Shown here: piece by piece, positions 2,664-42,700 of the stretch
How positions within the stretch are numbered: position 1 is the stretch's first letter
Layout: every line of letters begins with the position of its first letter
NCBI GenBank assembly: GCA_964518415.1
Contig: CAZFGE010000001.1
Span: 1-42,914, forward strand
Direction: 5' to 3'
Length of the DNA stretch: 42,914 bases
Source of the DNA: an uncultured Muribaculaceae bacterium
GTDB lineage: Bacteria; Bacillota_I; Bacilli_A; RF39; UBA660
Made by a program: the position numbers and the translations under genes
Notes under the pieces: generated by a model
Told to the model about the DNA's origin: nothing
What the model saw: only the letters and a program-made list of their open reading frames with translations
Database searches by the model: none

Positions 2664-2690
2664 CTAACTATGTTCTAGTTAGTTTTTTTT
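2664..2690. terminator. Hairpin between convergent tsaD and the ABC permease (bidirectional terminator candidate)
   Basis: Stem ctaacta (2664-2670) / tagttag (2676-2682), followed by a T-run. Overlaps the stop codon of the minus-strand permease. Confidence 0.5.
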
Positions 2691-3462
2691 CTATATAAAG
2701 AACTATATAATACATTATAGCTGCAACAATAGATAATACAATAATACCAGTCATGACTAAATTTAAATTAAAGATTTGAGAGCCATATAAAATTAAATAT
2801 CCAATTCCTTTTTTAGAAACTAAGAATTCACCCATAATAACTCCTATTAATGACATGCTTATATTTATTTTTAAACTACTTATTATACTCTTAAGTGAAT
2901 CAGGTAATATTAGTTTAAAGAATAATTGTCTTTTAGATGCCTTTAAAGATTTAAATAGTTTTATCTTATTTGAGTCTACTTCTTTGAATGCTGATGTAAT
3001 ATTTATAATTGTTATAATTACAGAGATAAGTAAAGCCATTAAAATAATAGATTTCATTCCAGAACCACACCATATTATAATAATAGGTCCAAGGGCAACT
3101 TTAGGAAGACTATTTAAAATAGTTAAATATGGATCAAATATTTTATATAAGTAAGTATTCCACCATAGAATTGCAGCTATAAAAAGACCAATTATAGTAC
3201 CTAGAGAAAAGCTAAATAAAGTTTCATAAACAGTTATAAATATATGTTCAAATAAATCCTCATGACTTAAAGTTATAAGTGTATTTATAATGTTTTTAGG
3301 ACTTGATGTTATAAAAGTATTAATAAGTCTTAAATCAGCAGATAACTGCCATATAAAGATAAATAAAAGAATAATAATAATTTGAAAAAATCTAATTGTT
3401 AAATTCTTTTTTCTTTCTTTTTTTAAGTAGTTAATATGTTCTTTACTATACATTTTGATCAA
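2668..3462 (-). CDS. ABC transporter permease, NitT/TauT (SsuC/TauC-like) family
   Basis: 264 aa with about 6 predicted TM helices and a BPD-type permease layout. Overlaps the upstream ATPase fragment by 17 nt. Confidence 0.8.
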   Translation of the reverse strand: MIKMYSKEHINYLKKERKKNLTIRFFQIIIILLFIFIWQLSADLRLINTFITSSPKNIINTLITLSHEDLFEHIFITVYETLFSFSLGTIIGLFIAAILWWNTYLYKIFDPYLTILNSLPKVALGPIIIIWCGSGMKSIILMALLISVIITIINITSAFKEVDSNKIKLFKSLKASKRQLFFKLILPDSLKSIISSLKINISMSLIGVIMGEFLVSKKGIGYLILYGSQIFNLNLVMTGIIVLSIVAAIMYYIVLYIEKKLTRT

Positions 3463-3781
3463 TATCCTTCCATATCATGTCATAGTACTCTAAAAACTCT
3501 TTTGTTTTTCTATTATTAATTGGAGTTGACTTACCAGTTAGTTTTATATCATATATTTTTTTAATTTTACTTGGTCTATTAGACATAACAATTACTCTAT
3601 CTGACATACTAATTGCCTCAGCTAAATCATGAGTAACCATAATCGCACTTTTTTTCTCGCGTTTAAGTATTTTATAAACATCATCAGAAACTTTAAGCCT
3701 TGTTTGATAATCAAGAGCGCTAAAAGGTTCATCTAAAAGCAAAATATCAGGCTTTATTGCGAGTGTCCTAATTAAAGCAAC
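3446..3781 (-). pseudogene. ABC transporter ATP-binding protein, C-terminal fragment (gene split by the inserted element)
   Basis: The minus frame reads VALIRTLAIKPDILLLDEPFSALD (Walker B) ... VTHDLAEA (H-loop). Walker A, Q-loop and signature motif are absent here and lie at 10747-11163. The M at 3742 in the ORF track is an internal TTG Leu codon. Confidence 0.9.
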
Positions 3782-3784
3782 TGT

Positions 3785-3806
3785 TTGAATAATTTATAGA
3801 CATTTT
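3785..3806. repeat. Left terminal inverted repeat (attP-derived arm in attL)
   Basis: ttgaataatttatagacatttt is the exact reverse complement of 10729-10750. Confidence 0.9.
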
Positions 3807-3858
3807 TTGCGTAAAGCAAATAAAAAATATTATTTTGTTAACTCAAAGTAAAAAATAG

Positions 3859-3867
3859 TGATATAAT
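3859..3867 (+). promoter_or_regulatory. Extended -10 promoter element for the element cargo operon
   Basis: TGaTATAAT at 3859-3867. The only TTG-type -35 candidate (TTGTTA, 3835-3840) is 21 nt away, so the promoter would rely on the extended -10. Confidence 0.35.
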
Positions 3868-3921
3868 GTAATTGTAGTATAGTCTAGACAGAATAGAATG
3901 GATTATTTAAACTACAATTAC
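3868..3921 (+). promoter_or_regulatory. Leader stem-loop upstream of the first cargo gene
   Basis: gtaattgtagt (3868-3878) pairs perfectly with actacaattac (3911-3921), an 11-bp stem with a 32-nt loop. It lies just upstream of the GGGAGG RBS. Confidence 0.3.
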
Positions 3922-3942
3922 AATATGTAGGGAGGTGAAGAC

Positions 3943-4599
3943 ATGAACAGAGGTAGAGGAAGAAGTAAAAGAGATGTCTTAACAATCATAGCTATTGTAG
4001 TTGGCTTTGTTGTTGTTGCACTTTCATATGCAACATTATCTAATACTCTTTCAATTTCATTTTCATCTGCAGTAAAACCTGATAGTTCTTCATTTAGTGT
4101 AGTACTATCTTCTAGCTCAACTTCAGTTGTAAATAATCCTGTTGTACCAGAATTAAATAAAACTGTAGCTGATTTTACTGCAACAGATGGAACTATTGAC
4201 AATAGTACTGATGCACCAAAACTTGAAAATATGCATGTTACTTTTACTGAACCTGGTCAATCAGTAACATACAAAGTATATGCACATAATACTGGAAAAT
4301 ATTTAGCTTATTTAAATAGTATTAATTTTTCTGGAAGTAAAACTTGTACTGCAAAAACTGGTACAAGTGAAACAATGGTAGCAGCTGCTTGTGATGGAAT
4401 TACTTATAGCGTTAAAGTAGGTGATGAAACAGCCACTAATACTTCAGTAACTGATATATCAGGACATGAACTTGGTAAAGAAGCTAATGAAGAAATTACT
4501 ATTGTAATTACTTATGAAACCGGTAGTGAACTTGCTGATGGTGACTTTGATGTAACATTACCAAGCGTAACACTAAATTATGATTCAGTTGATTTATAA
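3943..4599 (+). CDS. Secreted or surface protein with a basic N-terminus and single hydrophobic anchor (candidate SipW-type substrate, TasA/camelysin-like architecture)
   Basis: N-terminus MNRGRGRSKRD followed by TM helix and SYATLS motif, then a Ser/Thr-rich beta-rich domain. Strong RBS GGGAGGTGA. Immediately upstream of a SipW-like peptidase gene. Confidence 0.5.
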   Translation: MNRGRGRSKRDVLTIIAIVVGFVVVALSYATLSNTLSISFSSAVKPDSSSFSVVLSSSSTSVVNNPVVPELNKTVADFTATDGTIDNSTDAPKLENMHVTFTEPGQSVTYKVYAHNTGKYLAYLNSINFSGSKTCTAKTGTSETMVAAACDGITYSVKVGDETATNTSVTDISGHELGKEANEEITIVITYETGSELADGDFDVTLPSVTLNYDSVDL

Positions 4600-4617
4600 G
4601 ATTTAGGAGGATAAAAA

Positions 4618-5736
4618 ATGAAAATAAAAAATAAAGAATTTATTATTTTTACAATATTTTTGATAATTATTTTATCTATAAATATGATGATGACTCATTT
4701 TTTCTCCACCCATCTTATTGCTACTTTTTTAATTTTAACAATTATATTTTTTAAATATTATTTTATATTTGAAAAAAACTATGTTAAATATGAAGGAAAT
4801 GTAATCTTTGAAACAATTGTCTTTGTATCATCATTTTTTATTGTATATTATTTATTAGGATTAATAGTAGGTTTAACTAAAACAGGAAATTATTTTAACT
4901 TTTATAATTTAACATTTAGAATTGTTCCGGCTATTATTTATATAATACTAAGAGAAATTTTAAGATATAATATGATGAGAAAATGTGGTAAAAGTAAATT
5001 GTGTATGTTTTTGACTGTATTTTTATTTGTATTAATGGATTTATCATTCTATATTGCAAATATAGGTTTATATTCAAAACAGGATGTAATTAGATATTTA
5101 ACATTTACACTTATTCCAATTATATCTAAGAATTTAGCATTTTCATTTGTTATAAGGGATTGTGGTTATAAGCCAATTATTATATTTGATTTAATATTTA
5201 AACTATATCCATATATAATTCCTTATGTTCCAAATCCAAATGAATTTATGTCATCAATGATAAATATGATTACACCTATACTTTTTGCATTTAGAATTGA
5301 AAACTTTTATGTAATGAAAAATGAATATATTGAACATGGAGTTTATTTTAAAAGAAAAATAAATGATTATTTTGTTCCTGTTACATTAACAATAGTACTT
5401 GCCTATTTATTTAGTGGCTACTTTAGATATTATGCAGTTGTAGTTGCTAGTGAAAGCATGTTACCTTCACTTGAAGTTGGAGATTTAGTTGTACTTGATC
5501 AAAATAGTAGTACATATAAACGAGGTGACATAATTGCCTATAAAAAAAATAATAAAATAATTATTCATAGAATAAATAAAATTGTTGATATAGATGGTGA
5601 TGAGTACTATTATACAAAAGGTGATAGTAATAAAAGTATTGATGAATTCGTTGTTGAAAATGAAATGATTATAGGAAAAGTAAAATTTAAACTATCACAT
5701 ATTGGTTATCCTGCTGTATGGTTAAGTAGGAAGTAA
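4618..5736 (+). CDS. Signal peptidase I, SipW/archaeal-eukaryotic (S26B) type, fused to an N-terminal polytopic membrane domain of about 270 aa
   Basis: The C-terminal 100 aa carry SESMLPSL (Ser nucleophile box), GDIIAY, IIHRI (His box) and YTKGDSN. The N-terminal part has about 7-8 hydrophobic helices. AGGAGG RBS. Confidence 0.7.
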   Translation: MKIKNKEFIIFTIFLIIILSINMMMTHFFSTHLIATFLILTIIFFKYYFIFEKNYVKYEGNVIFETIVFVSSFFIVYYLLGLIVGLTKTGNYFNFYNLTFRIVPAIIYIILREILRYNMMRKCGKSKLCMFLTVFLFVLMDLSFYIANIGLYSKQDVIRYLTFTLIPIISKNLAFSFVIRDCGYKPIIIFDLIFKLYPYIIPYVPNPNEFMSSMINMITPILFAFRIENFYVMKNEYIEHGVYFKRKINDYFVPVTLTIVLAYLFSGYFRYYAVVVASESMLPSLEVGDLVVLDQNSSTYKRGDIIAYKKNNKIIIHRINKIVDIDGDEYYYTKGDSNKSIDEFVVENEMIIGKVKFKLSHIGYPAVWLSRK

Positions 5737-5751
5737 AGGAGTATGAATTGT

Positions 5752-6852
5752 ATGGATATAAAAGGATTTACACATAACTTGAATAATAAAATAAATAAAA
5801 AGAAAAATTTTGGATATTATGCTAAAATAGTTTCATTTTTATTAATTATAGTTATATTGATTATTGGTTTAAGTATTTTTCTTTCAATGTCATTTGCTGT
5901 TACAAAGAAAGATACAATTAAATATAGTGAAAAAGGTACAGTAGACTATAAAGTTTACTTAAAAGATAATACTTTTTATGAAACAAGCTATTTGGAAAAA
6001 GGAATGGCATATGTTGCTAGCTTAGTTGATAAAATAAGTATTGATTATCACTACTTATTTAATATTAGTAGAAAAGAAGATTTAAATTTTAATTATAAAA
6101 TTATTGGTAAACTGGTAATAAAAAGTCAAAATGACGAAACATCTTTTTATGAGAAAGAATATGATTTAACTGACTCAATTGAAAGAGATGTAGAAAAAGC
6201 CAAAAAATATGCAATAGATGAAAATATTATAATTGATTATAATTATTATAATGATTTATCAAGTAAGTTTAGAGCTAACTATGCAATAAACACAATAAGT
6301 TATTTGGAAGTTTATTTAGAGGTTAATGCTAAAACAAATAAAAGTTTAGGATATAAAGTTGATCACAAAAGTAAATCAATTGTTACAATTCCTCTTTCTA
6401 AACAAGAAGTAAATGTTACAGTAGACAATAAAGAAGCAAATAGTCAAAAAGAAATTAATATTGAGTCAAGATTAATACTTAAAAATAAATATTTCTTATT
6501 AGAGAGTTTTATCTTATTTGTATTTTTATGTTTTACATTATTTGAGTTATATAAAACATTACTAGGACATAATAAACGTAATAATACATATAATAAATAC
6601 ATAAGCAAAATATTAAGAGCATATGATAGAATAATTGTTGATGTTAAAGAACTTCCTGATTTAGAAAAATATGATATTATTGAAGTTAAGAATTTTGATG
6701 AGTTATTAGATTTAAGTGACAATCTTAAAAAACCAATTAGTTATTTAGAAGAAAAAGATATATGTAGTAAGTTCTTTGTAATTGATGGTAATGTTTTCTA
6801 TATTTGTGTAATAAGAGAATCTGAATTGGATGGTTCTAATAATGAAATTTAA
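5752..6852 (+). CDS. Bitopic membrane protein of unknown function (architecture resembles DUF5305-type partners of SipW loci)
   Basis: TM helix near residue 30, an extracytoplasmic domain of about 200 aa, a second TM (YFLLESFILFVFLCFTLF), then a cytoplasmic tail. ATG 5752 has better RBS spacing (AAGGAG 5736-5741) than ATG 5743 of the ORF track. Confidence 0.4.
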   Translation: MDIKGFTHNLNNKINKKKNFGYYAKIVSFLLIIVILIIGLSIFLSMSFAVTKKDTIKYSEKGTVDYKVYLKDNTFYETSYLEKGMAYVASLVDKISIDYHYLFNISRKEDLNFNYKIIGKLVIKSQNDETSFYEKEYDLTDSIERDVEKAKKYAIDENIIIDYNYYNDLSSKFRANYAINTISYLEVYLEVNAKTNKSLGYKVDHKSKSIVTIPLSKQEVNVTVDNKEANSQKEINIESRLILKNKYFLLESFILFVFLCFTLFELYKTLLGHNKRNNTYNKYISKILRAYDRIIVDVKELPDLEKYDIIEVKNFDELLDLSDNLKKPISYLEEKDICSKFFVIDGNVFYICVIRESELDGSNNEI

Positions 6853-9061
6853 AAAAAGAAAACAAAGAAAAAATATTACATATAATACAATTGTCATTGT
6901 ACTTACATTTATCATGTGTTTCTTATCAGTTGGTTATTGTGCTATGTCATCTGTTGATGTATTTGAAAGTCCTACAGTACTTGTATCTCCAAAAGCAGAT
7001 GTAAGAATTACTAATTTGGAATTATCAAGTACAAGTAATGGTGGAATAAGTAAGTCAGAAGATTACAACGTTGATAGAATAAATGGTTTAATTGATTTAC
7101 CTAATATAGATTCTACTGTTACATATAAAGTAGATATTACTGTATTTTTATCAAGTGAAATGCAACTTGATAATATTACAGGATTAAACCCTAATTTAAC
7201 ATATGAATTAGTTGATTATAATTTAGGTGAAGTACTTTGTAATACAAACAATGAATGTAATTTAGGGGCAGTTAAGGAGTTATATTTAGTTATTAAATAT
7301 AAAGATGGTTCATATGATAGTTCACATACTGAATATCCTTTTGAACTAAATTTTGAATTTAATCCAATAAATAAAGCTGCTAAAATAGATTATACATATT
7401 ATAATACTATTCAAGAAGCAATTGATAATGTTGAGGCTAATGGAGTTGAAAAAACAATATTTGTCTTACGTGAGAGACAAGAACTCTTAAAAATAAATTC
7501 TAATCAAAAAATTAAATTGAACTTTCAGGGTTATAAAGTAACTAATATTACAGAAAGACCAATAATAGAAAATTATGGTTTATTAACAATTCAAAATGCC
7601 AATTTATTATGCGATTCAACACAAGGTGCAATTAATAATTATAGTGGAGCAGAACTTAAAATATTTGATGGTAAAGTAATTGCAACAGGTGAGAAGCAAT
7701 CAATATATATAAAAGGTGGAAATGCAGAATTAGGTGGTAGTTTATATGTAAAAAACTCTAGTTCTATTAGAGCTTCTGTTCATAATGAAGGTGGATATTT
7801 AACAATATTAGGTGGAACATATATATCAGAGAACTATTCGGGTATATATAATAAAGGAACTTTAACAATTGGTACAAAAGATGGTAGTGTTAATATATCA
7901 AGTCCATTAATAATTGGTGATACATTTGGTTTAGAGACTACAAAAAATATTTCTTTTTATGATGGAGTTATAAAAGGAAAAACCGATTCAGTAAATGTTA
8001 AATCTAGACTATATAATTTGGAAGATGATTATAGTCCTTTATATGAGACAGAATTAATTGATGAGGTATTATATCATACTGTAATTCTTGATAAAGCAAA
8101 AATTGTTACATTTAATCCAAATGAAGGAACTGTTAATGAAACAACAAGACAGTATGAAAAAAATTCTTTACTTGGAGTTCTTCCTGTTCCGACAAAAGAT
8201 GATTATACATTTATTGGATGGTATACTCGCTTACATGGAGGAGAAAAAGTTGGTTTAGATACAGTTGTAACAGATAATATGGAATTATTTGCTCATTGGA
8301 AAAAGACAAGTACTATTAAAATTGCTCAAATTGAAGAAACAGGTAATAAGTATCATACATTACAAGATGCTATTGATGCAGCAAGTCCTTTTACAACAAC
8401 AGAAATAACCATTCTTCAAGATACATATGAAAATGTTATTGTAGATAGTAATAAAATTATAACATTTAAATTTGGTGATTATACATTATCAAGTATTGAT
8501 AATAGAGCTGTTATAACTAACTATGGAAAAGTAACTATGATAAGTGGTAGATTAACAACTCTATCTGAAAATAATGCTGCAGTAAATAATGAAGAAGGTG
8601 AATTTATAATATCTGGTGGATCTATTGTTGCAGCAGGTCAAAGACAAGCTATATATAATAATGGTGGTACGTTAACTATCACTGGAACAGCTTATTTAAA
8701 TAACTCTTCATCAGTAAGAGCTGCAGTACAAAATCAAAATACTAATAATAAAATAGGTAAAACATATATTACCGGTGGAACAATTGTATCTTTAAAACAA
8801 GAGGCAGTTAAAAATTTATCAGGAGAGTTATATATAGGTATTAAAAATGGAACAATTGACATAACAACTCCTATATTAAAAGGAGAAACATATGGTGTTA
8901 ATAATGCAAGTCAATTTAGTTTTTATGATGGTACAATAAAAGGTTTAATTCATACTGTAAATGGTAATGTAACATCAATAGAAGATAATGCAACTACTAT
9001 ATATACAACGGAAGTAATAAATAATAAAGAATATCGTGTAATATATTTAAAACAAGAGTAA
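6842..9061 (+). CDS. Large surface protein: N-terminal anchor, two beta-helix-like modules of about 220 aa, and one Listeria-Bacteroides (Flg_new) repeat
   Basis: Anchor KFKKRKQRK followed by TM and GYCAMS. Internal duplication between aa ~183-400 and ~497-715; both modules start with [TL]QEAID/QDAID and end with FYDGxIKG. FNPNEGTV...YTFIGWYT...FAHW matches the Flg_new repeat. The track start 6830 is an in-frame alternative. Confidence 0.6.
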   Translation: MKFKKRKQRKNITYNTIVIVLTFIMCFLSVGYCAMSSVDVFESPTVLVSPKADVRITNLELSSTSNGGISKSEDYNVDRINGLIDLPNIDSTVTYKVDITVFLSSEMQLDNITGLNPNLTYELVDYNLGEVLCNTNNECNLGAVKELYLVIKYKDGSYDSSHTEYPFELNFEFNPINKAAKIDYTYYNTIQEAIDNVEANGVEKTIFVLRERQELLKINSNQKIKLNFQGYKVTNITERPIIENYGLLTIQNANLLCDSTQGAINNYSGAELKIFDGKVIATGEKQSIYIKGGNAELGGSLYVKNSSSIRASVHNEGGYLTILGGTYISENYSGIYNKGTLTIGTKDGSVNISSPLIIGDTFGLETTKNISFYDGVIKGKTDSVNVKSRLYNLEDDYSPLYETELIDEVLYHTVILDKAKIVTFNPNEGTVNETTRQYEKNSLLGVLPVPTKDDYTFIGWYTRLHGGEKVGLDTVVTDNMELFAHWKKTSTIKIAQIEETGNKYHTLQDAIDAASPFTTTEITILQDTYENVIVDSNKIITFKFGDYTLSSIDNRAVITNYGKVTMISGRLTTLSENNAAVNNEEGEFIISGGSIVAAGQRQAIYNNGGTLTITGTAYLNNSSSVRAAVQNQNTNNKIGKTYITGGTIVSLKQEAVKNLSGELYIGIKNGTIDITTPILKGETYGVNNASQFSFYDGTIKGLIHTVNGNVTSIEDNATTIYTTEVINNKEYRVIYLKQE

Positions 9062-9078
9062 AAAAACTCTTGTTTTTT
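9051..9078 (+). terminator. Rho-independent terminator after the surface-protein gene
   Basis: Stem aacaagag (9051-9058) / ctcttgtt (9067-9074), then a T-run. Confidence 0.6.
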
Positions 9079-9208
9079 CATATTTTTAATTAGGGTGATT
9101 AAATGAAATATAATATTATAAATGTTATACCTGAAATATCTAATCAGGATATAAAAAAAATAGTAAATATAAAACTGATAAATTATATATTATTTATGGA
9201 GCAAAATA

Positions 9209-10741
9209 ATGAACAAGATATATAGAGTAGGAACATATTATAGATTATCTGATGAGGATAGAGAAAAAACGAGTGACTTTAGTGAGAGCATTAAAAATCA
9301 AAGAAACTTATTAATTGATTATATAAACATACATAATAATTTTATCTTAGTTGATGAGTATTGTGATGAAGATTTATCTGGAGCTGGAACATATAGACCC
9401 GAATTTGAAAGACTAATTAATGATTGTAAAAATGGCAAAATAGATATAGTATTATGTAAGAGTCAATCAAGATTTTCAAGAGATATGGAAATAATAGAAA
9501 AATATCTTCATAACTATTTTTTAGAATGGAATGTTCGATTCATAAGTATTGCTGATAATGCTGATACATCCAATCCCGGTAATAAGAAATCAAGACAAAT
9601 AAATGGACTTGTAAATGAGTGGTATTTAGAGGATGTATCAAATAATATAAGAAGTGCTTTTAAATCAAAAATGCAACAAGGCGAGTATATTTCTCCTTTT
9701 GCGCCATATGGATACTTAGTATCTAAAACAAATAATAACAAAATAGAAATTGATTATGATGCAAGTTTAATTGTAAAAGATATATTTAATTTGTATTTAA
9801 AAGGATATGGATATAAAAAAATTGCAGATATATTAAATTATAAAAATATTCCAAGTCCTTCTTATTATAAATATAAAAAAGGCGTAAAACTAAATGTTGT
9901 AAGTAATAAGAATAGATGTGATATAAAGTGGTCTAGTAATGCAATAAAAACAATTTTAACAAATGAGGTATATATTGGAAACTTAGTTCAAGGAAAGAGA
10001 ACTACAATTAGTTATAAAAATCATAAAATAATTAATAAAGATAAAAGTATGTGGATTAAAAGATGCAATACGCATGATGCTATTATAGATTCAAAAACAT
10101 TTTATAAAGTAAAAGAAGAAATAAAAAAAAGATCAAAGATATCAACAAAAACAAATATGGTACATATATTTTCAGGTAAAGTTTTTTGTGAAACCTGTAA
10201 TAAAAAATTAAGAAAGAAAAATTCTAAAAATCATAGTTACTTAGTATGTGAAAATTGTATAAATAAAAAATCAATTAGATATGATTGTTTAGAGAAAATA
10301 ATATTAGAATGTATTAATAACATTCTTATGAAAAACTTTGATATATCACTATTAAAATGTGAATTAAAAAAAAGATATAAGTCTAACACATTAGAATTAT
10401 TAAAAAAAACAAAAGAAAAAATAACAAAACAAAAAATGAATAATAAAGAGTATTTAAAAAATATTTATATAGATAAAGTAAAGGGGATTATAAATAATAA
10501 CCAGTTTAAAGAATTACTTAAAACATTTAATCAAGAATTATATAAAATCAATAATCAAATAAATGAATTAGAGTTAAAAATAAAAAAATATTCTGAAAAA
10601 ATTGATTTAAATAAATATCATAAAATAAAAACATTAAATAGATATATTGTAGATGAATTCATTGAAAAGATATATATTGGTCCAATTAATAGTTTAAATA
10701 CACGAGATATAAAGATTATTTGGAACATAAAATGTCTATAA
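9209..10741 (+). CDS. Large serine recombinase (SpoIVCA/TnpX/CcrB class)
   Basis: 510 aa. N-terminal resolvase domain with YYRLSDED (Ser nucleophile candidate) and SRFSRD. Central recombinase domain. Zinc ribbon CETCNKKL...CENC. Lys/Glu-rich coiled-coil tail. The stop codon lies inside the right terminal repeat. Confidence 0.9.
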   Translation: MNKIYRVGTYYRLSDEDREKTSDFSESIKNQRNLLIDYINIHNNFILVDEYCDEDLSGAGTYRPEFERLINDCKNGKIDIVLCKSQSRFSRDMEIIEKYLHNYFLEWNVRFISIADNADTSNPGNKKSRQINGLVNEWYLEDVSNNIRSAFKSKMQQGEYISPFAPYGYLVSKTNNNKIEIDYDASLIVKDIFNLYLKGYGYKKIADILNYKNIPSPSYYKYKKGVKLNVVSNKNRCDIKWSSNAIKTILTNEVYIGNLVQGKRTTISYKNHKIINKDKSMWIKRCNTHDAIIDSKTFYKVKEEIKKRSKISTKTNMVHIFSGKVFCETCNKKLRKKNSKNHSYLVCENCINKKSIRYDCLEKIILECINNILMKNFDISLLKCELKKRYKSNTLELLKKTKEKITKQKMNNKEYLKNIYIDKVKGIINNNQFKELLKTFNQELYKINNQINELELKIKKYSEKIDLNKYHKIKTLNRYIVDEFIEKIYIGPINSLNTRDIKIIWNIKCL

Positions 10742-10750
10742 ATTATTCAA
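10729..10750. repeat. Right terminal inverted repeat (attP-derived arm in attR)
   Basis: aaaatgtctataaattattcaa is the exact reverse complement of 3785-3806. It contains the recombinase stop codon (10739-10741). Confidence 0.9.
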
Positions 10751-11163
10751 GCAACTCTTTGTCTCATACCTCCTGATAGACTACTTGGATAACTATTAAT
10801 AAAATCTTTAAGTCCATATGTTTTAAGTAAATTCATTACATATTCTTTATTTGAACTTGTTAATTCACCCTTTATCTCAAGTCCAAGTAGACAGTTTTTA
10901 TAAATGGTTCTAAAGTCAAGTAGACTATCATCTTGTAACATATATCCAATATTATTATCTTTGCTATATTCAATACTACCTTCTGATTTATCAAGTAATC
11001 CACATAGTATAGATAAAATTGTTGACTTCCCACATCCACTAGGCCCTACAATAGATACAAATTCTCCTTCTTTTAAATTAAAAGAGAAATCTTTAACAGC
11101 TTCTATCTCAGCATCTTTAGTATGGTATATTTTTTTTAAGTTTTTAATTTTTAAAATATCCAC
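10747..11163 (-). pseudogene. ABC transporter ATP-binding protein, N-terminal fragment (gene split by the inserted element)
   Basis: Walker A GPSGCGKST, Q-loop region MLQDD, signature LSGGMRQRVA. A TGA supplied by element DNA follows immediately. Confidence 0.9.
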
Positions 11164-11223: not shown

Positions 11224-11257
11224 CTAAAAAAAGGAAATAAATTATTTGTTTATTTCC
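11224..11257 (-). terminator. Rho-independent terminator of the glycosyltransferase gene
   Basis: Stem aggaaataaa (11231-11240) / tttatttcct (11248-11257), with a T-run on the minus strand (complement of 11224-11230). Confidence 0.6.
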
Positions 11258-12330
11258 TTTAATATTATTTTTTTATTATCCTTTAGTCTTTTAATATTTG
11301 GACTTATTTTAATTGCTTTATCAATACATTCTAAAGCCTCTTTATAATTGTTTTCATAAAAGTAAGCAACTGATAATAAATCATAAATAGTATGATCCCA
11401 GCTAAATACTTCATTTATATATGATTTATAATGTGTTTTAATTTTTAAAGCTTCATTACAGTAAAATATTACATCTTTATAATTACCTAACTTATATTCT
11501 AAAAGAGCACGTTCTACAAAACTATCACGTAGATATGGAGCTTCTTTTATTGCTTTATCTAGCCACATTCTTGCCTCATCATATCTTTTTAATGCTTTAT
11601 ATGAACGAGCTATAAATCTCATTGATGCACATCGCTCATCTTTCCATGTCGCGCTTTTTAAATTTAAATGTTTAATTAGCGTATCTATTGCTTTATTCCA
11701 TTTTCTATAATACATATATTCTCTTCCTAAATAATGCATATTTCTATCATCTTCAGGATCTTCTTTTACTGATAGTTCTAATAAGGGTAAATAATTAGAT
11801 CTAGATTTTGTTTTATCTGGATAATGATTAACTGTAATATTGTCAGTATATACTTTTATTTCTTTTTTATTACCAATATATTTTAATGTTTCATGTACAG
11901 GATGAATCCAAATATAATCGTCTCGACTATGTATTTTTTCAATGTAAAAATTAACTTTTGGCGTGTTATTTTCATCTAATATCCAATTATAGTTATAAGC
12001 TAATCTAGTTGTATAAGTATTCCATGTTTTCTCAAGTTCATCTCTCCATCCTGGATTAAATACTTCATCTAAATCAGTACATACGCATATATCAGCATCC
12101 ATTGGTACCATAGAAAGTGACTCACATCTTGCTTTATCAAATCTCCAAGGTGTAATAATGTGCTCTTTAACATGAATGTTATGTTCTTTTAATTTTTTAA
12201 CAGTATTATCTGTTGAGCCTGTATCTAGGACATATATTTCATCTGCTTCTTTCATTGATTCATACCATTTATCTACATGTTTTTCTTCATTTTTACTTAT
12301 GGCATATACACAAACTTTGTATTTTTTCAT
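11242..12330 (-). CDS. Family-2 glycosyltransferase with C-terminal TPR repeats
   Basis: N-terminal GT-A signature (VCVYAISKNEEKHV...LDTGSTDNT...CTDLDE). The C-terminal half has TPR-like Y/A/L periodicity. Directly downstream of, and co-oriented with, the collagen-like gene. Confidence 0.7.
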   Translation of the reverse strand: MKKYKVCVYAISKNEEKHVDKWYESMKEADEIYVLDTGSTDNTVKKLKEHNIHVKEHIITPWRFDKARCESLSMVPMDADICVCTDLDEVFNPGWRDELEKTWNTYTTRLAYNYNWILDENNTPKVNFYIEKIHSRDDYIWIHPVHETLKYIGNKKEIKVYTDNITVNHYPDKTKSRSNYLPLLELSVKEDPEDDRNMHYLGREYMYYRKWNKAIDTLIKHLNLKSATWKDERCASMRFIARSYKALKRYDEARMWLDKAIKEAPYLRDSFVERALLEYKLGNYKDVIFYCNEALKIKTHYKSYINEVFSWDHTIYDLLSVAYFYENNYKEALECIDKAIKISPNIKRLKDNKKIILKEINK

Positions 12331-12332
12331 AT

Positions 12333-12935
12333 TTATGGAGTAGGACCAGTTGGACCTTGTGGAATTGTTAGATTTAGGACAAAGTTAGGCGCAGTTCCTG
12401 TAATAGTTGCTGCAGCATCAGTACCAGGATCCCCAGTTGTAACTGTACCAATTGTAAGTGTTGGTGTTTCACCATCAATACCAGCGGGACCAGTAGGACC
12501 GATTTCTCCAGCAGGACCAGTAGGACCGGTAGGACCAGTAGGACCAGTAGCTCCGTCAACACCATCAATACCAGCAGGACCAGTAGGACCAATTTCTCCA
12601 GCAGGACCAGCAGGTCCAGTAGGGCCAGTAGCTCCGTCAACACCATCAATGCCAGCAGGACCAGTAGGTCCAATTTCACCTTCAGGTATAGTAAAGTCTA
12701 AAATAACATCTTCATCAGTACCAACATTTGTAACAAGTGCATCAGTACCAGCTGCTCCAGTTGTTGTTGTACCAATAGTGATAGTAGCAGGTCCTGCAGG
12801 ACCAGTAGGTCCAGTAGGTCCTATAATTACTTGACTCATACCGTTTAGACATTTTCTATCTCTTTTAATTTTTTCATATACACGTTCTAAATTTCTACCA
12901 CATCTATCATCACAACAATTTAAATTATCATTCAT
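12333..12935 (-). CDS. Collagen triple-helix repeat protein (BclA-like exosporium/surface glycoprotein candidate)
   Basis: Runs of [14 protein letters not shown] triplets interrupted by two paralogous Thr-rich beta segments ([28 protein letters not shown] and [28 protein letters not shown]). Cys-rich N-terminal region. Confidence 0.85.
12472..12680 (-). repeat. Tandem DNA repeat inside the collagen-like gene (90-bp unit, 81-bp unit, partial third unit)
   Basis: Units start with ccatcaata/ccatcaatg at 12472, 12562 and 12643. They encode [23 protein letters not shown]... and differ by three GXY triplets. Confidence 0.85.
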
Positions 12936-14889: not shown

Positions 14890-15708
14890 TTATTTTATTG
14901 TTTCTAATATTTTATTATTATTTATTTCTTTTAGACTTTTTTTAGGTGTTGGTAATTCCTCAGGCATAGTACCACCATTTTTCTTTATAACATCACGAAC
15001 ATTTTTACCAACTTCATAGTGGGCTTTATTTGCATTTATCTGACCATTTATTTTTTCATTTTTAATTTTAGATTCAGTTTGTACTATTCTAAATAGATTA
15101 TCAGCAAGTTCTTCACTTCCCATGTTATCTAGTATATCTTCTCTATAGCGAAGATTTTTTCTTTTAGCTATATCATTTGCAGTCTCACCATTATAAAGTC
15201 CTTTATATCCAGCATTATGAAATTTATCAAAATTCTTAACTCCTGCTTTTAAAGCGGCTTGATTTAATTCATAGTTTCCCAATTTGGTTAAACTTCTTAT
15301 GTATAATCTTTTTTCATCTTCTGATAATTTATTATACGCACTTTCTAATATTTCTTGACGTCTAGTTTGTATAGCAAAATAGGTTTGAGCAAGTGCTACT
15401 ACTTCTTTCCTAGAATCAGCATTTTGAGCAATTAGGTAACATGCATAACGAGATAATTTATAGTCATTTACTTTTCTTTTTGCACTCTTAGCTATATTTA
15501 TCATTCCGCTCATATGGACGAAATGATCTGTTATTTTTTGATTACTTTTTATGCATGCATCAATAGCTTTTTTTATAACAGGTAAAAATTTTCTATACTC
15601 AGTATATTCTAATACTTTTTGAAGTTCTCTTGCACTCCAGTATTCATTATCATCTTCATCAATATGTTTAATATTATCAAATAATATTTTATTTTCAAGT
15701 TTAGTCAT
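14890..15708 (-). CDS. dinD: DNA-damage-inducible protein D
   Basis: Collinear similarity to E. coli DinD: YWSARELQKVLEY, DHFV, KLSRYACYLIAQNADSRKEVVALAQTYFAIQTRRQE. Confidence 0.8.
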   Translation of the reverse strand: MTKLENKILFDNIKHIDEDDNEYWSARELQKVLEYTEYRKFLPVIKKAIDACIKSNQKITDHFVHMSGMINIAKSAKRKVNDYKLSRYACYLIAQNADSRKEVVALAQTYFAIQTRRQEILESAYNKLSEDEKRLYIRSLTKLGNYELNQAALKAGVKNFDKFHNAGYKGLYNGETANDIAKRKNLRYREDILDNMGSEELADNLFRIVQTESKIKNEKINGQINANKAHYEVGKNVRDVIKKNGGTMPEELPTPKKSLKEINNNKILETIK

Positions 15709-30959: not shown

Positions 30960-31814
30960 ATGAATAATTTCGTAATAGCAATTAGAAGATTTTTCCAAAA
31001 CAAAAATACAGTAACAGTTATAGGAGTAATTCTTATATTAGTTGTATTATTTGTTGGATACAAAATTCAAATCAACAAAGCAGTAGAACCAGTATCAGGT
31101 ATACCAGTTGCTACTCAAACAATTCAACCAAGAACATTGATTGAAAATGATATGGTATCAACTATTCAAGTTGCACCTATCGTATTATCTGATAATGTAA
31201 TCAGATCAAAAGCCGCAGTAGTTGGAAAATATACAGCTGTAAATACAGTAGTTCCAGAAGGAAGTATGTTTTATAAAAATACAGTTGTAACAAAAGATGA
31301 ACTTCCAGATGCTGCATTTGTAGATATCGAAAAAGGACAAATACCATATAACTTCCCAGTTACTATGGCATCAACTTATGGTAACTCAATTTATCCAGGA
31401 AATTACATTGATATTTATATGAAATCAATGAATGAAAATGGAGAGTTAATGGTTGGTAGATTAATCGAAAATGTTAAAGTATTAGCAGTTAAAGATTCTC
31501 AAGGAAAGAATGTATTTGAAAATTCTGAAGAAACAAGAGTTCCTGCATATATAATCTTTGGATTAGATTATGAATTAAATATTTTACTTAGAAAAGCAAG
31601 TTACATGGATGAATTCCAAGTAGAATTATTCCCAGTGCCACATGGTACACAAGTTAAAACTGGCGATGGTGAGACTATCGTAAGTAGTCAAACATTAAAA
31701 GATTTCATAAATGCTAATACAGTACCTAACGATGAAATAACTGCTCAACAAGAAACTGATGCAGCAAAAGAAACTGTAACAGATACTACTAAAAACACTA
31801 AAAAAGAAAGCTAG
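30960..31814 (+). CDS. CpaB/RcpC-like Flp pilus assembly protein
   Basis: N-terminal TM. SAF-like segment (IQPRTLIENDMV...VVGKYTAVNTVVPEGSMF). PGNYIDIY and ENVKVLAV segments typical of CpaB. Immediately upstream of the secretion ATPase. Confidence 0.55.
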   Translation: MNNFVIAIRRFFQNKNTVTVIGVILILVVLFVGYKIQINKAVEPVSGIPVATQTIQPRTLIENDMVSTIQVAPIVLSDNVIRSKAAVVGKYTAVNTVVPEGSMFYKNTVVTKDELPDAAFVDIEKGQIPYNFPVTMASTYGNSIYPGNYIDIYMKSMNENGELMVGRLIENVKVLAVKDSQGKNVFENSEETRVPAYIIFGLDYELNILLRKASYMDEFQVELFPVPHGTQVKTGDGETIVSSQTLKDFINANTVPNDEITAQQETDAAKETVTDTTKNTKKES

Positions 31815-40855: not shown

Positions 40856-41381
40856 ATATACAAATGATGAGTTCGTTCCAGTAAAAAGTATTACAAATGG
40901 AATGATTATCTTAGATAATAATGACAAAGTAAGTGGAATTAAAATTATGCCAAGAAATATATTTATAGCTGATCAAGATACTCAAAATGCTATAATTGCT
41001 AATTTAAGAAATGTTTATAACATGATAGATTACGAATTTTGGATTATAGCAGCTGATAGACCAGTTGATATAAATGTATTCTTATCTCAATTACAACTTT
41101 TATATAATTCAGTGCAAGATCAAGCTAGAAAGAAACTAATTATGGAAGATATTAATAAAGCAAATATGTTTATGGATAATAATATTGTTGATACAGAATA
41201 TTTCTTATTATTTAAAGAAAGAAACAATGATGTAGTAATGAAAAGAATTAGAAATTTAATTAATTCATTTGCTAGCGCAGGTTTAAATTCACATCAAGTT
41301 ACAAATGATGATTTAAGAATCATCTTAGATAACTTCTTAAATGGTGGACAAACTACTACATTTGGTACGGTGATTGGCTAA
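40830..41381 (+). CDS. VirB4-like ATPase, detached N-terminal segment
   Basis: 183 aa. Resembles the first ~180 aa of Firmicute VirB4/PrgJ/CD1110-type ATPases (VPVKSITNGMIILDNNDKVSGIKIMP.N..). Joined to the next ORF by a TAATG overlap. Confidence 0.45.
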   Translation: MSSKKIKSKYTNDEFVPVKSITNGMIILDNNDKVSGIKIMPRNIFIADQDTQNAIIANLRNVYNMIDYEFWIIAADRPVDINVFLSQLQLLYNSVQDQARKKLIMEDINKANMFMDNNIVDTEYFLLFKERNNDVVMKRIRNLINSFASAGLNSHQVTNDDLRIILDNFLNGGQTTTFGTVIG

Positions 41382-42700
41382 TGGATATTAAATCACAAAT
41401 AGCTCCTAAGGGACTTGAATTTAAAGCTTCTCACTTTGTAATAAGTGATAAATATGCATGTATATTAACAGCAATAACTTATCCAAGATATATAGCTCCA
41501 GGATACTTATCTAGTTTAACTAGTATGTCTGGAATTAAAGTTGTAATTAAACATATTCCACTACCTTTTAGTGCAATTTCTAAAATGCTTAATAAAGAGA
41601 TAGCTGATTTAAAACAACGTTATCAAGAAGAACATGATAGAACTGCACAAGAACGTATTAGACAAAATTATGAATCACTAGAACAATTCATATCACAACT
41701 TGCTGCATCACAATCTAAAATATATGATTTTCAAATGCATATCATGATAACTGCTAATACAGAAGAAGAATTAAATCAAAAGAAATTCCAAGTTAAAAAC
41801 TATTTGGATGCTATGGAAATAAGAGCAATTCCACTTAGATTTGAACAAGAAAAAGTATTAAAATCTATTTTACCAATTTATGGTAAACAAGATATAGAAG
41901 ATAGAATAGGTACACCAATTCCTGCACCTACAATTGCAGCTATGTATCCATTTATATTTGATAGTATAAAAGATCCAGGATTATCTACACTTCTTGGTGT
42001 TGATTTCTCTGGTGGTGTTATTCTATTTAATCAATTCTTATATCAAATCAAAAAAGAACATAATAGAAATAATGCTAACTTAATTATTCTAGGTACATCT
42101 GGTAGTGGTAAATCTACTGCAGCTAAGATTTTACTTAGAACTCATATTAGAAATAATTGTCAACTTGTTCTAATTGATCCAGAAGGTGAGTTAGAAGAAA
42201 TGACAAATAGATACGGTGGAGATTTCATCGACCTTGGTAAAGGTGGAGAATTCGGTATGGTTAACCCATTAGAGGTTATAATAGATGCTGATGAAGATGA
42301 AATTGCTAATGGTTTAGGTTACACTGTATTAACACGTACTTTACAAAGCGTTAAAGCATTTATGAAATATTATGATCCTTCAATTGAAGAAGATGTTCTT
42401 AATATGTTTAGTGAAGTACTACAAGAAACATATAGAAGATTTGGTATTGACTTTAACACTGACTTTACAAAATTTACATCTAAAGATTATCCAACTTTCA
42501 AGGATGTTTATGCAACTATAAGAGGTCGTTTAACATCTATGACTGAGAAAACTCAAGAGAGAGATGTAATGGAGAGACTTGAATTAAAAGTTAGACCAAT
42601 TGTTAAAGAATTAAAATATTACTTTGATGGACATACAACAATATCTACATCAAGTAACTTTATAACAAAAAAAAAAAGAGAAATAATCAATTCTGAATAA
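41381..42700 (+). CDS. VirB4-like conjugation/T4SS ATPase, truncated after the Walker A region (likely non-functional)
   Basis: IAPKGLEF....ISDKYACILTAITYPRYIAPGYL entry motif, Walker A GTSGSGKST (42092-42118), LIDPEGE motif. The ORF stops at aa 439, before any Walker B (DEAW-type) or C-terminal domain. Confidence 0.65.
   Translation: MDIKSQIAPKGLEFKASHFVISDKYACILTAITYPRYIAPGYLSSLTSMSGIKVVIKHIPLPFSAISKMLNKEIADLKQRYQEEHDRTAQERIRQNYESLEQFISQLAASQSKIYDFQMHIMITANTEEELNQKKFQVKNYLDAMEIRAIPLRFEQEKVLKSILPIYGKQDIEDRIGTPIPAPTIAAMYPFIFDSIKDPGLSTLLGVDFSGGVILFNQFLYQIKKEHNRNNANLIILGTSGSGKSTAAKILLRTHIRNNCQLVLIDPEGELEEMTNRYGGDFIDLGKGGEFGMVNPLEVIIDADEDEIANGLGYTVLTRTLQSVKAFMKYYDPSIEEDVLNMFSEVLQETYRRFGIDFNTDFTKFTSKDYPTFKDVYATIRGRLTSMTEKTQERDVMERLELKVRPIVKELKYYFDGHTTISTSSNFITKKKREIINSE

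Follow-up and report, generated by a model that had tools for sequence, protein, structure and literature searches.

The window, the whole 42,914-nt stretch of DNA analysed here, contains a minus-strand gene for a NitT/TauT-type ABC-transporter ATPase that lies in two parts, one on either side of an element encoding a large serine recombinase (LSR) (Table 1). As the earlier note had proposed, the minus-strand open reading frame at 10747-11163 holds the motifs from Walker A through LSGGMRQRVA, and the region 3446-3781 holds LIRTLAIKPDILLLDEPFSALD and the H-loop. The first of these frames (138 aa) ends at a TGA contributed by an arm of the element, and the stop codon of the C-terminal fragment overlaps the start of the permease gene. 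The partners of the split ATPase are this permease and an NMT1-type binding protein. The GC content of the element is 24.1%, as compared to 26.8% in its flanks.

Table 1. Features of the split ATPase locus, in window coordinates
Feature	Position	Strand	Remarks
ABC permease gene (BPD_transp_1), intact	2668..3462	-	Host DNA outside the element; downstream partner of the split ATPase gene
ATPase C-terminal fragment	3446..3779	-	Codons 138-247: ALIRTLAIKPDILLLDEPFSALD (Walker B/D-loop), H-loop
Left crossover copy, putative, 2 bp	3780..3781	.	Inside 8-mer 3775-3782
Integrated element	3782..10755	+	6,974 bp with one dinucleotide copy counted
Left terminal inverted repeat, one attP arm (TTGAATAATTTATAGACATTTT)	3785..3806	.	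Matches family motif TGAAT-N4-TA-N-AGACA
Sigma-70-like promoter, best match ahead of cargo operon	3838..3867	+	TTAACT-18-TATAAT with TG; consensus match only
Cargo operon, four genes	3943..9061	+	
Terminator-like hairpin	9049..9076	+	11 pairs, then a T run; between cargo operon and small-ORF/LSR module
Conserved 40-aa ORF	9103..9225	+	Overlaps LSR start by 17 nt; HMM E = 9e-10
LSR, 510 aa	9209..10741	+	Resolvase, Recombinase and Zn ribbon; weak DUF4368 match
Right terminal inverted repeat, other attP arm	10729..10750	.	Contains LSR stop codon
Right crossover copy, putative	10754..10755	.	Inside 8-mer 10749-10756
ATPase N-terminal fragment (NitT/TauT-type)	10756..11163	-	Codons 1-137: Walker A, Q-loop, LSGGMRQRV

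Joining the two flanks at their common 8-mer yields an in-frame 744-nt ORF of 247 aa, the excision product that had been predicted. The rejoined ATPase matches the Pfam ABC_tran profile in a single stretch (profile positions 1-136 of 137), aligns with CmpD (9u9z_D) with no gap across the junction, and matches a natural, uninterrupted protein (P0125) at 97% identity with 0 gaps over its 247 aa. The insertion lies where it had been placed, past the ABC signature motif and ahead of Walker B, at the codons for GGMRQRVALIRTLA.

The ends of the element have the layout of a serine-integrase attP. The 22-bp arms are perfect reverse complements, as claimed; a repeat finder lengthens them to 28 nt at 93% complementarity (3782-3809 / 10726-10753), and at up to 3 mismatches the 22-mer has only its two matches in the window, where shuffled sequences give an expectation of 0.03. 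The suggestion that the repeats are the P and P' arms is backed by an arm motif conserved in 27 related elements, with the family consensus GTGTCTttAt.atATTCAaagA-GT-TGctTGAATataaTaaaGACAc (27 loci); the arms of the window attP match at 26 of 30 positions. The LSR stop codon does fall within the right repeat, as had been noted.

The shared 8-mer, AAGCAACT, is present at 3775-3782 and 10749-10756, but it does not stand as the crossover, since across the family only the GT inside it is common to attL and attR. This dinucleotide reads AC on the plus strand and GT in the sense of the gene, where it forms the first two bases of the Val137 codon. In 26 of 27 loci GT comprises the only bases that attL and attR share; the exception, L061, has AC instead, and its host codon differs as well. 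GT sits at the centre of the attP dyad symmetry. Together, the dyad-symmetric arms, the non-palindromic central dinucleotide and the sharing of that dinucleotide alone by attL and attR correspond to a serine-integrase attP. Cleavage would thus fall at GT, and the other bases of the 8-mer reflect ordinary similarity between attP and attB.

The recombinase contains the domains expected of an integration module: a resolvase catalytic domain with the Ser nucleophile and Arg residues, followed by the Recombinase domain and a zinc ribbon. The proposed Pfam assignments hold for Resolvase (79 bits, cut-off 23.3), Recombinase (PF07508, 82.6 bits) and Zn_ribbon_recom (PF13408, 27.2 bits against a cut-off of 25.3), and LSR homologues have a DUF4368 C-terminal domain. 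In an alignment of 24 sequences, Arg12, Ser14, Arg68, Arg88 and Arg91 are invariant, as are the cysteines C327, C330, C347 and C350. Alignment places Ser14 opposite the Ser of YCRVS, a motif of 3g13. Matches to known structures are the TnpX catalytic domain (phmmer E = 4e-11), a C. difficile conjugative-transposon recombinase and SprA, the last a distant similarity (phmmer E = 1e-11). The top NCBIfam match is CcrB, at 95 bits far under the family cut-off of 900. The LSR of the window is presumably active. In one of the other samples (L090) gene calling divides the LSR into a 302-aa and a 137-aa piece, and some copies may therefore be decaying, unless this reflects an assembly error.

Directly upstream of the LSR, the 40-aa ORF belongs to a family of small proteins found in this position in at least 47 of 83 loci. 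Its HMM gives E = 0.035 for the next best segment of the window, and it matches no Pfam or PHROG family. It is the sole candidate for a co-factor of the LSR and may be a directionality factor or regulator. The cargo operon encodes a 218-aa protein with an N-terminal hydrophobic segment (by eye a signal anchor) and no family match, a membrane protein of 372 aa with a SipW/archaeal-type signal peptidase I domain at its end, a DUF5305 protein of 369 aa and a Listeria-Bacteroides-repeat protein of 743 aa. This SipW-type cluster is unique to the window element among the 27 family members compared. A sigma-70-type scan of the window finds no evident promoter between the cargo terminator and the small-ORF/LSR module; the promoter scans covered sigma-70-type motifs only, and the AT-rich sequence makes motif calls unreliable.

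A search with PHROGs finds no phage structural, packaging, lysis or replication genes in the element; the matches are to integrase and, weakly, between the signal-peptidase protein and a CI-like repressor family (E 1.8e-5). Among IMG/VR viral contigs, no LSR is closer than 44% identity. With no phage genes and so distant a viral LSR, an origin as a prophage or phage-derived element was rejected.

The element is one of many at the same site. Among 64 GTDB species loci whose LSR is at least 54% identical, 57 have the orthologous ATPase split at residue 137/138, and in six of the seven without a visible split the sequence stops less than 110 bp past the LSR. Where both junctions are present, at 27 loci, rejoining gives an intact ORF of 244-250 aa every time. 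The LSR is the only gene common to all 27 elements compared, the 40-aa upstream ORF is the only other part that recurs, and the cargo varies: relatives carry a P-type ATPase with ArsR, Alr with Ddl, RhuM, Bro-N or a YhcG nuclease. One relative (L016) encodes a Mob_Pre relaxase (63 bits), of which three loci have homologues or fragments; the window element contains no relaxase gene by profile-family matches or in the 27-element comparison. These islands are apparently a large, undescribed family in uncultured gut Bacilli, directed at one codon of one ABC-ATPase gene.

The site also exists in other states. Uninterrupted, collinear and ungapped attB sites, which the earlier note had suggested looking for in related genomes, occur in four syntenic contigs (L001, L002, L091, L092), and full-length members of 247-248 aa fall together with truncated ones of 139-142 aa in the 90%-identity protein cluster of the ATPase. 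The window element was recovered independently at this position from four other samples (L007, L008, L089, L090), and on one host allele the site is filled by the window-type element in L007 and by another family member in L003-L006. The contigs of L007 and L008 break off close to the element: from each common 8-mer outward, host flank extends 141 and 144 bp in L007 (contig name k141_...) and 55 and 58 bp in L008, about one assembly k-mer per side. These breaks appear to fit branching of the assembly graph where occupied and other alleles coexist, and they could come from mixed strains rather than active excision. With these empty sites, the junction alignment and the catalytic residues, the central claim, that an LSR element splits the ATPase gene and that precise excision would rebuild it, came through all three checks set for it beforehand.

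Divergence of the element is uncoupled from that of its hosts. The element of the window shares 98.2% identity with that of L007, and the flanks of the two share 91% and 76%; L044 and L046 are 98.8% identical in the element, 95.7% in the ATPase gene and 96.6% in the flank. Pairwise identities of LSR and ATPase are uncorrelated (Spearman 0.02). An element more conserved than its flanks, with LSR and host diverging independently, bears the signature of horizontal transfer at the level of these comparisons.

Taken in aggregate, the data favour, at a probability of about 0.82, a horizontally mobile, site-specific integrative element that is a member of a large family in uncultured gut Bacilli. The locus has the anatomy of such an element, is precisely restorable, exists in empty and alternatively occupied forms, and shares its target with the family. 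The reaction would likely involve: binding of the LSR to both inverted-repeat arms of a circular attP (...AAAATGTCTATAAATTATTCAA GCA-AC-TGT TTGAATAATTTATAGACATTTT...) and to an attB of ~40 bp at the ATPase codons for GGMRQRVALIRTLA; strand exchange at a 2-bp staggered cut on the GT of the Val137 codon; and integration, which would split the gene and place a TGA from the attP arm immediately after codon 138. Run backwards, as attL x attR, recombination would give back the exact 247-aa ORF. The element has accessory cargo, in the window the SipW-type signal peptidase cluster. As the window element lacks a relaxase gene, its transfer probably depends on other elements.

The element is of a known kind, TndX/TnpX-like and IME-like. 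Tn4451/Tn4453 (TnpX) and Tn5397 (TndX) of clostridia are likewise small non-phage elements with a single LSR, excision as a circle and a 2-bp crossover. Tn4451 is ~6 kb long and its reported crossover is GA, in contrast to the GT found here. The recombinase here is only distantly related to TndX, the nearest characterised recombinase found, at ~31% identity over 95% of the length. Tn4451 has cargo and a MobV-type relaxase (PMC5704250), to which the relaxase of at least one family member (L016) corresponds, whereas the window element has none. Tn4451 also integrates with low specificity (PMC5704250), whereas the islands here keep strictly to a single codon of a single orthologous gene in 57 species loci; and TnpX reportedly works without any further transposon-encoded protein (PMC5704250), whereas here a conserved 40-aa ORF precedes the LSR. 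The weak TnpX match, GT crossover, strict target and missing relaxase place the element outside the Tn4451/Tn4453 family.

Two further groups share parts of this design. SCCmec cassettes (CcrAB/CcrC, in rlmH/orfX) are likewise LSR-moved cargo that alternates at one conserved gene site. Unlike SCCmec, the islands have one recombinase and no CcrA/CcrB pair; and SCC goes into the 3' end of rlmH and spares the gene, whereas the ATPase gene is cut mid-ORF. Streptococcal serine-recombinase IMEs (for example in rumA) have a single serine integrase, very short direct repeats and variable adaptive cargo, and their attB lies inside a protein-coding gene that integration disrupts (PMC5704250). The islands resemble them in all of these respects and differ in their hosts (uncultured gut Bacilli), in their NitT/TauT-type ABC ATPase target, in being known from sequence alone, and in that only some family members have a mobilisation module. 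Of the features of an IME, the window element has its own integration/excision module and defined ends; of a relaxase/oriT of its own, it lacks the relaxase.

A distinctly unlikely alternative is a reversible switch, comparable to active lysogeny, in which regulated excision and re-integration toggle the ABC importer in a subpopulation and the element is kept partly for regulation of the host gene. Consistent with this idea, neither gene half is damaged in any of the 27 species examined, nor is the permease; close species pairs in which both partners have elements show dN/dS of 0.04-0.10 for the split gene; and the LSR is intact with a conserved partner ORF. A recent insertion explains the intact halves and low dN/dS equally well; because the elements are younger than the divergence of their hosts, these features do not demonstrate selection after insertion. 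The breaks of the L007 and L008 contigs one k-mer outside both junctions would fit a population that contains both occupied and empty alleles. An attP-specific 26-mer marking the excised form is absent from IMG/VR and JGI contigs, from which the element itself is also absent, and apart from the small ORF no regulatory gene is common to all elements. A broader version, in which LSR and 40-aa ORF form a regulated reversible module, the islands switch one ABC importer on and off in dozens of gut Bacilli species, perhaps in a way linked to sporulation or nutrient state, and a sister LSR clade acts likewise on an Amidase_3-LysM cell-wall hydrolase gene, is also rather unlikely.

Developmental programming, of the skin, SPbeta, vfbin or gin type, would confine excision to the terminally differentiating mother cell during sporulation, where the ATPase gene would be rebuilt, and leave the insertion in the germ line. 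Like skin (SpoIVCA/sigK), SPbeta (SprA-SprB/spsM) and gin (GirC-GirX/gerE), the window element bears an LSR and splits a gene, inverted repeats flank the central dinucleotide of its attP, a short sequence is common to both junctions, and its precise excision, here in silico, restores the ORF. A dacB-like gene and two Gate-domain (spmA/B-like) genes nearby, together with a collagen-like gene of the host lineage, are consistent with a spore-forming host, and the small ORF beside the LSR might serve as a directionality factor. A non-phage precedent is gin, in gerE, whose copies are identical in two strains and so point to recent transfer (PMC5595907). The targets of skin, SPbeta and gin act in the mother cell, and their excision is tied to sporulation sigma factors via the LSR or directionality factor. 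The target here is instead a nutrient-importer ATPase with permease and NMT1-type partners, no known sporulation gene, and empty, occupied and alternatively occupied alleles exist in one species. In several relatives a TGnTATAAT extended -10 precedes the LSR, which would be typical of housekeeping-sigma promoters. Of the analogies drawn earlier, that to a Tn4451/TnpX-type mobile element fits; that to skin/SpoIVCA finds no support, given the polymorphic and alternatively occupied site, the Mob relaxase and resistance-type cargo of relatives, an element more conserved than its flanks, and the uncoupled divergence of element and host, which together make a developmental element very unlikely.

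A dead insertion, with an element that can no longer move and an ATPase gene that is a permanent pseudogene, is extremely improbable: the missing relaxase, the split LSR of L090 and the lack of an excision product in IMG/VR and JGI contigs (where the element is likewise absent) would agree with it, but the 22-bp arms are perfect, the LSR is full-length with invariant catalytic residues, 98%-identical copies occur in host lineages whose flanks differ by 9-24%, and the gene halves are free of frameshifts and stops beside an intact partner permease.

The mobile, site-specific element is mechanistically a textbook serine-integrase island, so the understanding of such elements is unchanged: family and target are new, while the kind of element is ordinary and works in a well-known way. 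Its value is descriptive and practical. The 27 natural, diverged attP/attB/LSR triplets, with a mapped GT core and a conserved candidate co-factor, are useful material for building sets of orthogonal integrase tools and for work on site recognition by LSRs. MAG annotation currently lists the gene halves as truncated 'ATP-binding cassette domain-containing protein', and recognition of the element accounts for such ATPase pseudo-truncations in MAGs. In gut Bacilli, members of the family compete for the same docking codon of an ABC-ATPase gene, and with cargo that includes metal-resistance and Alr and Ddl genes they constitute a route of gene flow in the gut microbiome.

The minus-strand ATPase gene of the window is split by a serine-recombinase element, the excision of which would rebuild an intact reading frame. 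This was the main interpretation of the earlier note, and it is right: the finding is real, and every feature described there was recovered at the position it had given, including the two gene pieces and the 8-mer repeated at the junctions (table). The inverted repeats reported as 22 bp and perfect (3785-3806 and 10729-10750) are exact reverse complements, and a repeat finder lengthens these arms to 28 nt at 93% complementarity. Within the 42.9-kb window, the 22-mer arm occurs at two sites only when up to 3 mismatches are allowed; shuffles give an expectation of 0.03. Joining the flanks in silico yields the predicted product, an in-frame 744-nt ORF of 247 aa, which matches Pfam ABC_tran in a single stretch (profile positions 1-136 of 137). 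The anticipated gap-free alignment across the junction was obtained both with the solved transporter subunit CmpD and with P0125, a natural uninterrupted 247-aa ATPase to which the rejoined protein is 97% identical with zero gaps. NCBIfam classes the rejoined protein with the NitT/TauT-type importer ATPases. Its top match there, SaoA, scores 186 bits, well under the cut-off of 360, and the ATPase is therefore given no orthologue name.

The attP arm (TTGAAT...; window 10747-10752) places an in-frame TGA right after codon 138, as does the attL of most family members. As a result, the N-terminal fragment is cleanly ended in most species as products of 138-139 aa, which accounts for the many 139-aa 'ATP-binding cassette domain' proteins in MAG annotations.

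Features of the split ATPase gene and of the element in the window
Feature	Position	Strand	Remarks
8-mer AAGCAACT	3775-3782 and 10749-10756		both junctions
ATPase, C-terminal part	3446-3781	-	LIRTLAIKPDILLLDEPFSALD and H-loop
ATPase, N-terminal part	10747-11163	-	ORF; Walker A through LSGGMRQRVA
Terminator-like hairpin	9049-9076		small ORF begins almost directly after
Large serine recombinase (LSR)	9209-10741	+	Resolvase, Recombinase and Zn_ribbon_recom matched; DUF4368 match sub-threshold
Cargo: 218-aa protein			N-terminal hydrophobic segment; no family match
Cargo: membrane protein			C-terminal SipW/archaeal-type signal peptidase domain
Cargo: DUF5305 protein
Cargo: 743-aa protein			Listeria-Bacteroides repeat

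Pfam bears out the assignment of the recombinase gene (table), and its catalytic residues are intact. In an alignment with 23 homologues, Ser14, R12, R68, R88 and R91 are invariant, as are the four zinc-ribbon cysteines. Of the characterised relatives found, TndX of Tn5397 is the closest (~31% identity over 95% of the length); solved-structure matches also include the TnpX catalytic domain, the recombinase of a C. difficile conjugative transposon, and SprA of SPbeta. A prophage origin of the element was rejected: PHROGs matches consist of an integrase and a weak match of the signal-peptidase protein to a CI-like repressor family, no phage structural, packaging, lysis or replication genes were detected in the element with PHROGs, and the closest LSR on IMG/VR viral contigs is only 44% identical.

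The element belongs to a family with a single target. An LSR profile scan, using one genome per GTDB species, returned 80 loci, nearly all in MAGs of uncultured gut 'Bacilli bacterium' from humans, rabbits, chickens and ruminants. Among loci with an LSR at least 54% identical, orthologous ATPase fragments adjoin the element and break at residue 137/138 in 57 of 64; six of the other seven have less than 110 bp past the LSR, making L025 the sole real exception. Both junctions are present in 27 loci (26 species plus the window), and in every one rejoining gives an intact ORF of 244-250 aa with LSGGM(R/K)QRVALIRTLA. In the aligned attL/attR pairs, no bases but GT are consistently common to both sites (26 of the 27 loci); L061 has AC at this position, and its host codon differs too. 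The reconstructed attP sites have a common motif, GTGTCTttAt.atATTCAaagA-GT-TGctTGAATataaTaaaGACAc, with the GT at the symmetry centre, in agreement with the earlier proposal that the inverted repeats are P and P' arms. Such a pattern is characteristic of a serine integrase, whose 2-bp crossover is here predicted to fall on bases 1 and 2 of the Val137 codon. The 8-mer noted previously is indeed present at both junctions, but only its GT corresponds to this crossover, the rest being ordinary attP/attB similarity. In 24 of the 27 loci, the LSR gene lies next to the C-terminal ATPase fragment and points the same way as the ATPase gene; the orientation is reversed in the window, L031 and L070. Such mixed orientation is expected if the asymmetric core alone sets polarity.

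A sister LSR clade (~45% identical; L074-L088) lacks ATPase fragments. In 11 of its 16 loci, a gene fragment that starts at an HGG(S)DPGA motif adjoins the LSR (L074, ~11644; L081, ~11656); in L074 this fragment encodes Amidase_3 (profile positions 7-173 of 174) and two LysM domains. The gene split by this clade thus appears to be one for a cell-wall amidase, interrupted close to the 5' end.

Related genomes contain the empty attB that the earlier note had suggested searching for. The 90%-identity cluster of the ATPase mixes full-length proteins of 247-248 aa with truncated ones of 139-142 aa. Four contigs with a full-length ATPase (L001, L002, L091 and L092) share the gene order of the window (TsaE-TsaB-RimI-TsaD, permease, ATPase), and the synteny of L001 and L002 runs further (Metallophos, UDPGP, NMT1 binding protein, MarR); the contigs of P0127 and P0125 supplied DNA for the analysis. 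All four sites are uninterrupted and collinear with the predicted attB, differing from it by 7-8 substitutions per 80 nt, with no indel and with the same encoded peptide. In L091 (~740-819) and L001 (~10375-10454), synonymous changes cluster beside the GT (AGAGTAGCACTAATT; GACAGCGAGTTGC). Some uninterrupted orthologues (P0007, P0010-P0012, P0015, P0021 and P0024) read MRQRCAL, with Cys for Val137, and thus have lost the crossover-bearing GTT codon. In this small sample, both kinds of allele may reflect escape of the att site from integration.

The same site is occupied elsewhere by more than one element. The 7-kb element of the window (LSR 97% identical) is also found there in four further samples (L007, L008, L089 and L090). 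Two of these, the short contigs L089 and L090, were considered as circle junctions and rejected, both being integrated attR ends. In L090 (446-1978) the LSR is annotated as two ORFs, one of 302 and one of 137 aa; either this copy is decaying or the assembly or sequencing is at fault. In L003-L006, a different element lies at exactly the same position, departing from attB and from the window element after ...AGAGTTG; its first gene is 88% identical to a gene of family member L016. The host allele of L003-L006 is the one that flanks the window-type element in L007, so one host lineage carries two different occupants of one site. Other genes nearby also vary: the window and L003/L004 have GT2-TPR, collagen-like (Gly-X-Y repeat) and DinD/Bro-N-type genes (window 11242-12935 and 14890-15708; the last matching at 337 bits, over its cut-off) that are missing from the syntenic empty-site contigs L001/L002, indicating more strain-variable insertions around attB.

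Counted outward from each 8-mer, host flank extends for 141 and 144 bp in L007 (contig k141_...) and for 55 and 58 bp in L008, and six GTDB contigs end less than 110 bp past the LSR. Contig ends about one k-mer beyond a junction are the product expected of a branching assembly graph. They suggest that several sampled populations were heterogeneous at the site, whether by strain mixture or by active excision. The attP-specific 26-mer of the circular junction is absent from IMG/VR and JGI metagenome contigs, as is an element-end 26-mer; the element is therefore not in those collections, and absence of the attP 26-mer is uninformative on circles.

Element size ranges from 3.5 to 12 kb across the family, and among genes of at least 60 aa the LSR alone is common to all; no shared directionality-factor gene of that size was found among the 27 elements compared. 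Smaller ORFs include one for a conserved 36-48-aa protein (consensus M.YN[VI]IDI.D..[LI]TDTKLKEIINKKLYKIIEL.EFN; no Pfam or PHROG family), which in at least 47 of 83 loci immediately precedes the LSR in the same orientation. With an HMM derived from 39 other loci, the window copy (9103-9222) stands out from 926 six-frame segments at E = 9e-10 (runner-up, 0.035). As a conjecture, this ORF is the only candidate directionality factor or regulator. In several relatives, the LSR is preceded by a TGnTATAAT extended -10 sequence. In L016, L028, L031, L035, L038 and L043, a non-coding spacer of ~95 nt between the small ORF and the LSR is conserved (..TGnTATAAT..TATCGGTTATAAGTTTAACTT...AATTATTGCCTTA..GGAGGTAAT..ATG) and might serve as a promoter together with a leader or operator. 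The window has no such spacer: its small ORF extends 17 nt past the LSR start. No promoter match was found between the hairpin and the small ORF of the window, and expression of its LSR may depend on read-through.

Cargo is variable, and that of the window (table) is unlike any other of the 27 elements. Pfam-confirmed cargo of relatives includes a Mob_Pre relaxase (L016), P-type ATPases with an ArsR regulator, alanine racemase with D-Ala-D-Ala ligase (L070), RhuM, Bro-N and YhcG nuclease. The 4.1-kb L070 element carries, besides the LSR, only the racemase and the D-Ala-D-Ala-ligase-family gene, a pair reminiscent of glycopeptide-resistance modules. Toward the 3' end of the window, a VirB4-like conjugal-transfer ATPase (41381-42700) has its best match in the Mbov_0397 ICE family, at 224 bits against a cut-off of 590, and 30960-31814 gives a weak CpaB-like match (Flp pilus assembly) that falls below threshold. 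This region may be a conjugative element of the same genome and might then mobilise small islands.

Ancient vertical inheritance, tested as co-divergence of LSR and host ATPase, was not found: their pairwise identities give a Spearman coefficient of 0.02, and three close pairs account for the weak Mantel r of 0.25. The elements of the window and L007 are 98.2% identical and the adjacent host flanks 91% and 76%; for L044 and L046, identity is 98.8% in the element, 95.7% in the ATPase gene and 96.6% over 3 kb of flank. Being more alike than their host flanks, the elements postdate host divergence. Taken in aggregate, these comparisons point to horizontal movement. The low dN/dS of the split gene (0.04-0.10) was rejected as a sign of post-insertion selection, since with elements this young intact gene halves are no proof of it. 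A role of the element as a reversible switch is unlikely. Less probable still is a skin-like developmental element, one of the analogies of the earlier note: the element has its formal logic in common with skin, SPbeta and gin, a non-phage gene-intervening element (PMC5595907), but unlike in that class, which is also defined by sporulation-timed expression, its target is not a sporulation gene. This reading is unsupported.

The other analogy, with TnpX-type elements, holds for the mode of action. In how it works, the element resembles the clostridial LSR elements Tn4451/Tn4453 (TnpX) and Tn5397 (TndX), as well as the site-specific serine-recombinase IMEs of streptococci, which are described as inserting into particular genes and disrupting them (PMC5704250). 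Membership in the Tn4451 family was rejected: the related TndX is only ~31% identical, and the match to TnpX is confined to the catalytic domain; the GT core, the strict specificity and a window copy without relaxase also set the element apart. A literature search of incomplete coverage returned general classes only (an IME review, gin, SPbeta, skin) and no description of this attB or family. The window contains a new member of an apparently new family of a well-known kind of mobile element. Its value lies in a codon-precise target held family-wide, in natural attP/attB/LSR triplets and in a conserved small partner ORF, and the element explains the recurrent 'truncated' ABC ATPase calls of gut MAGs.
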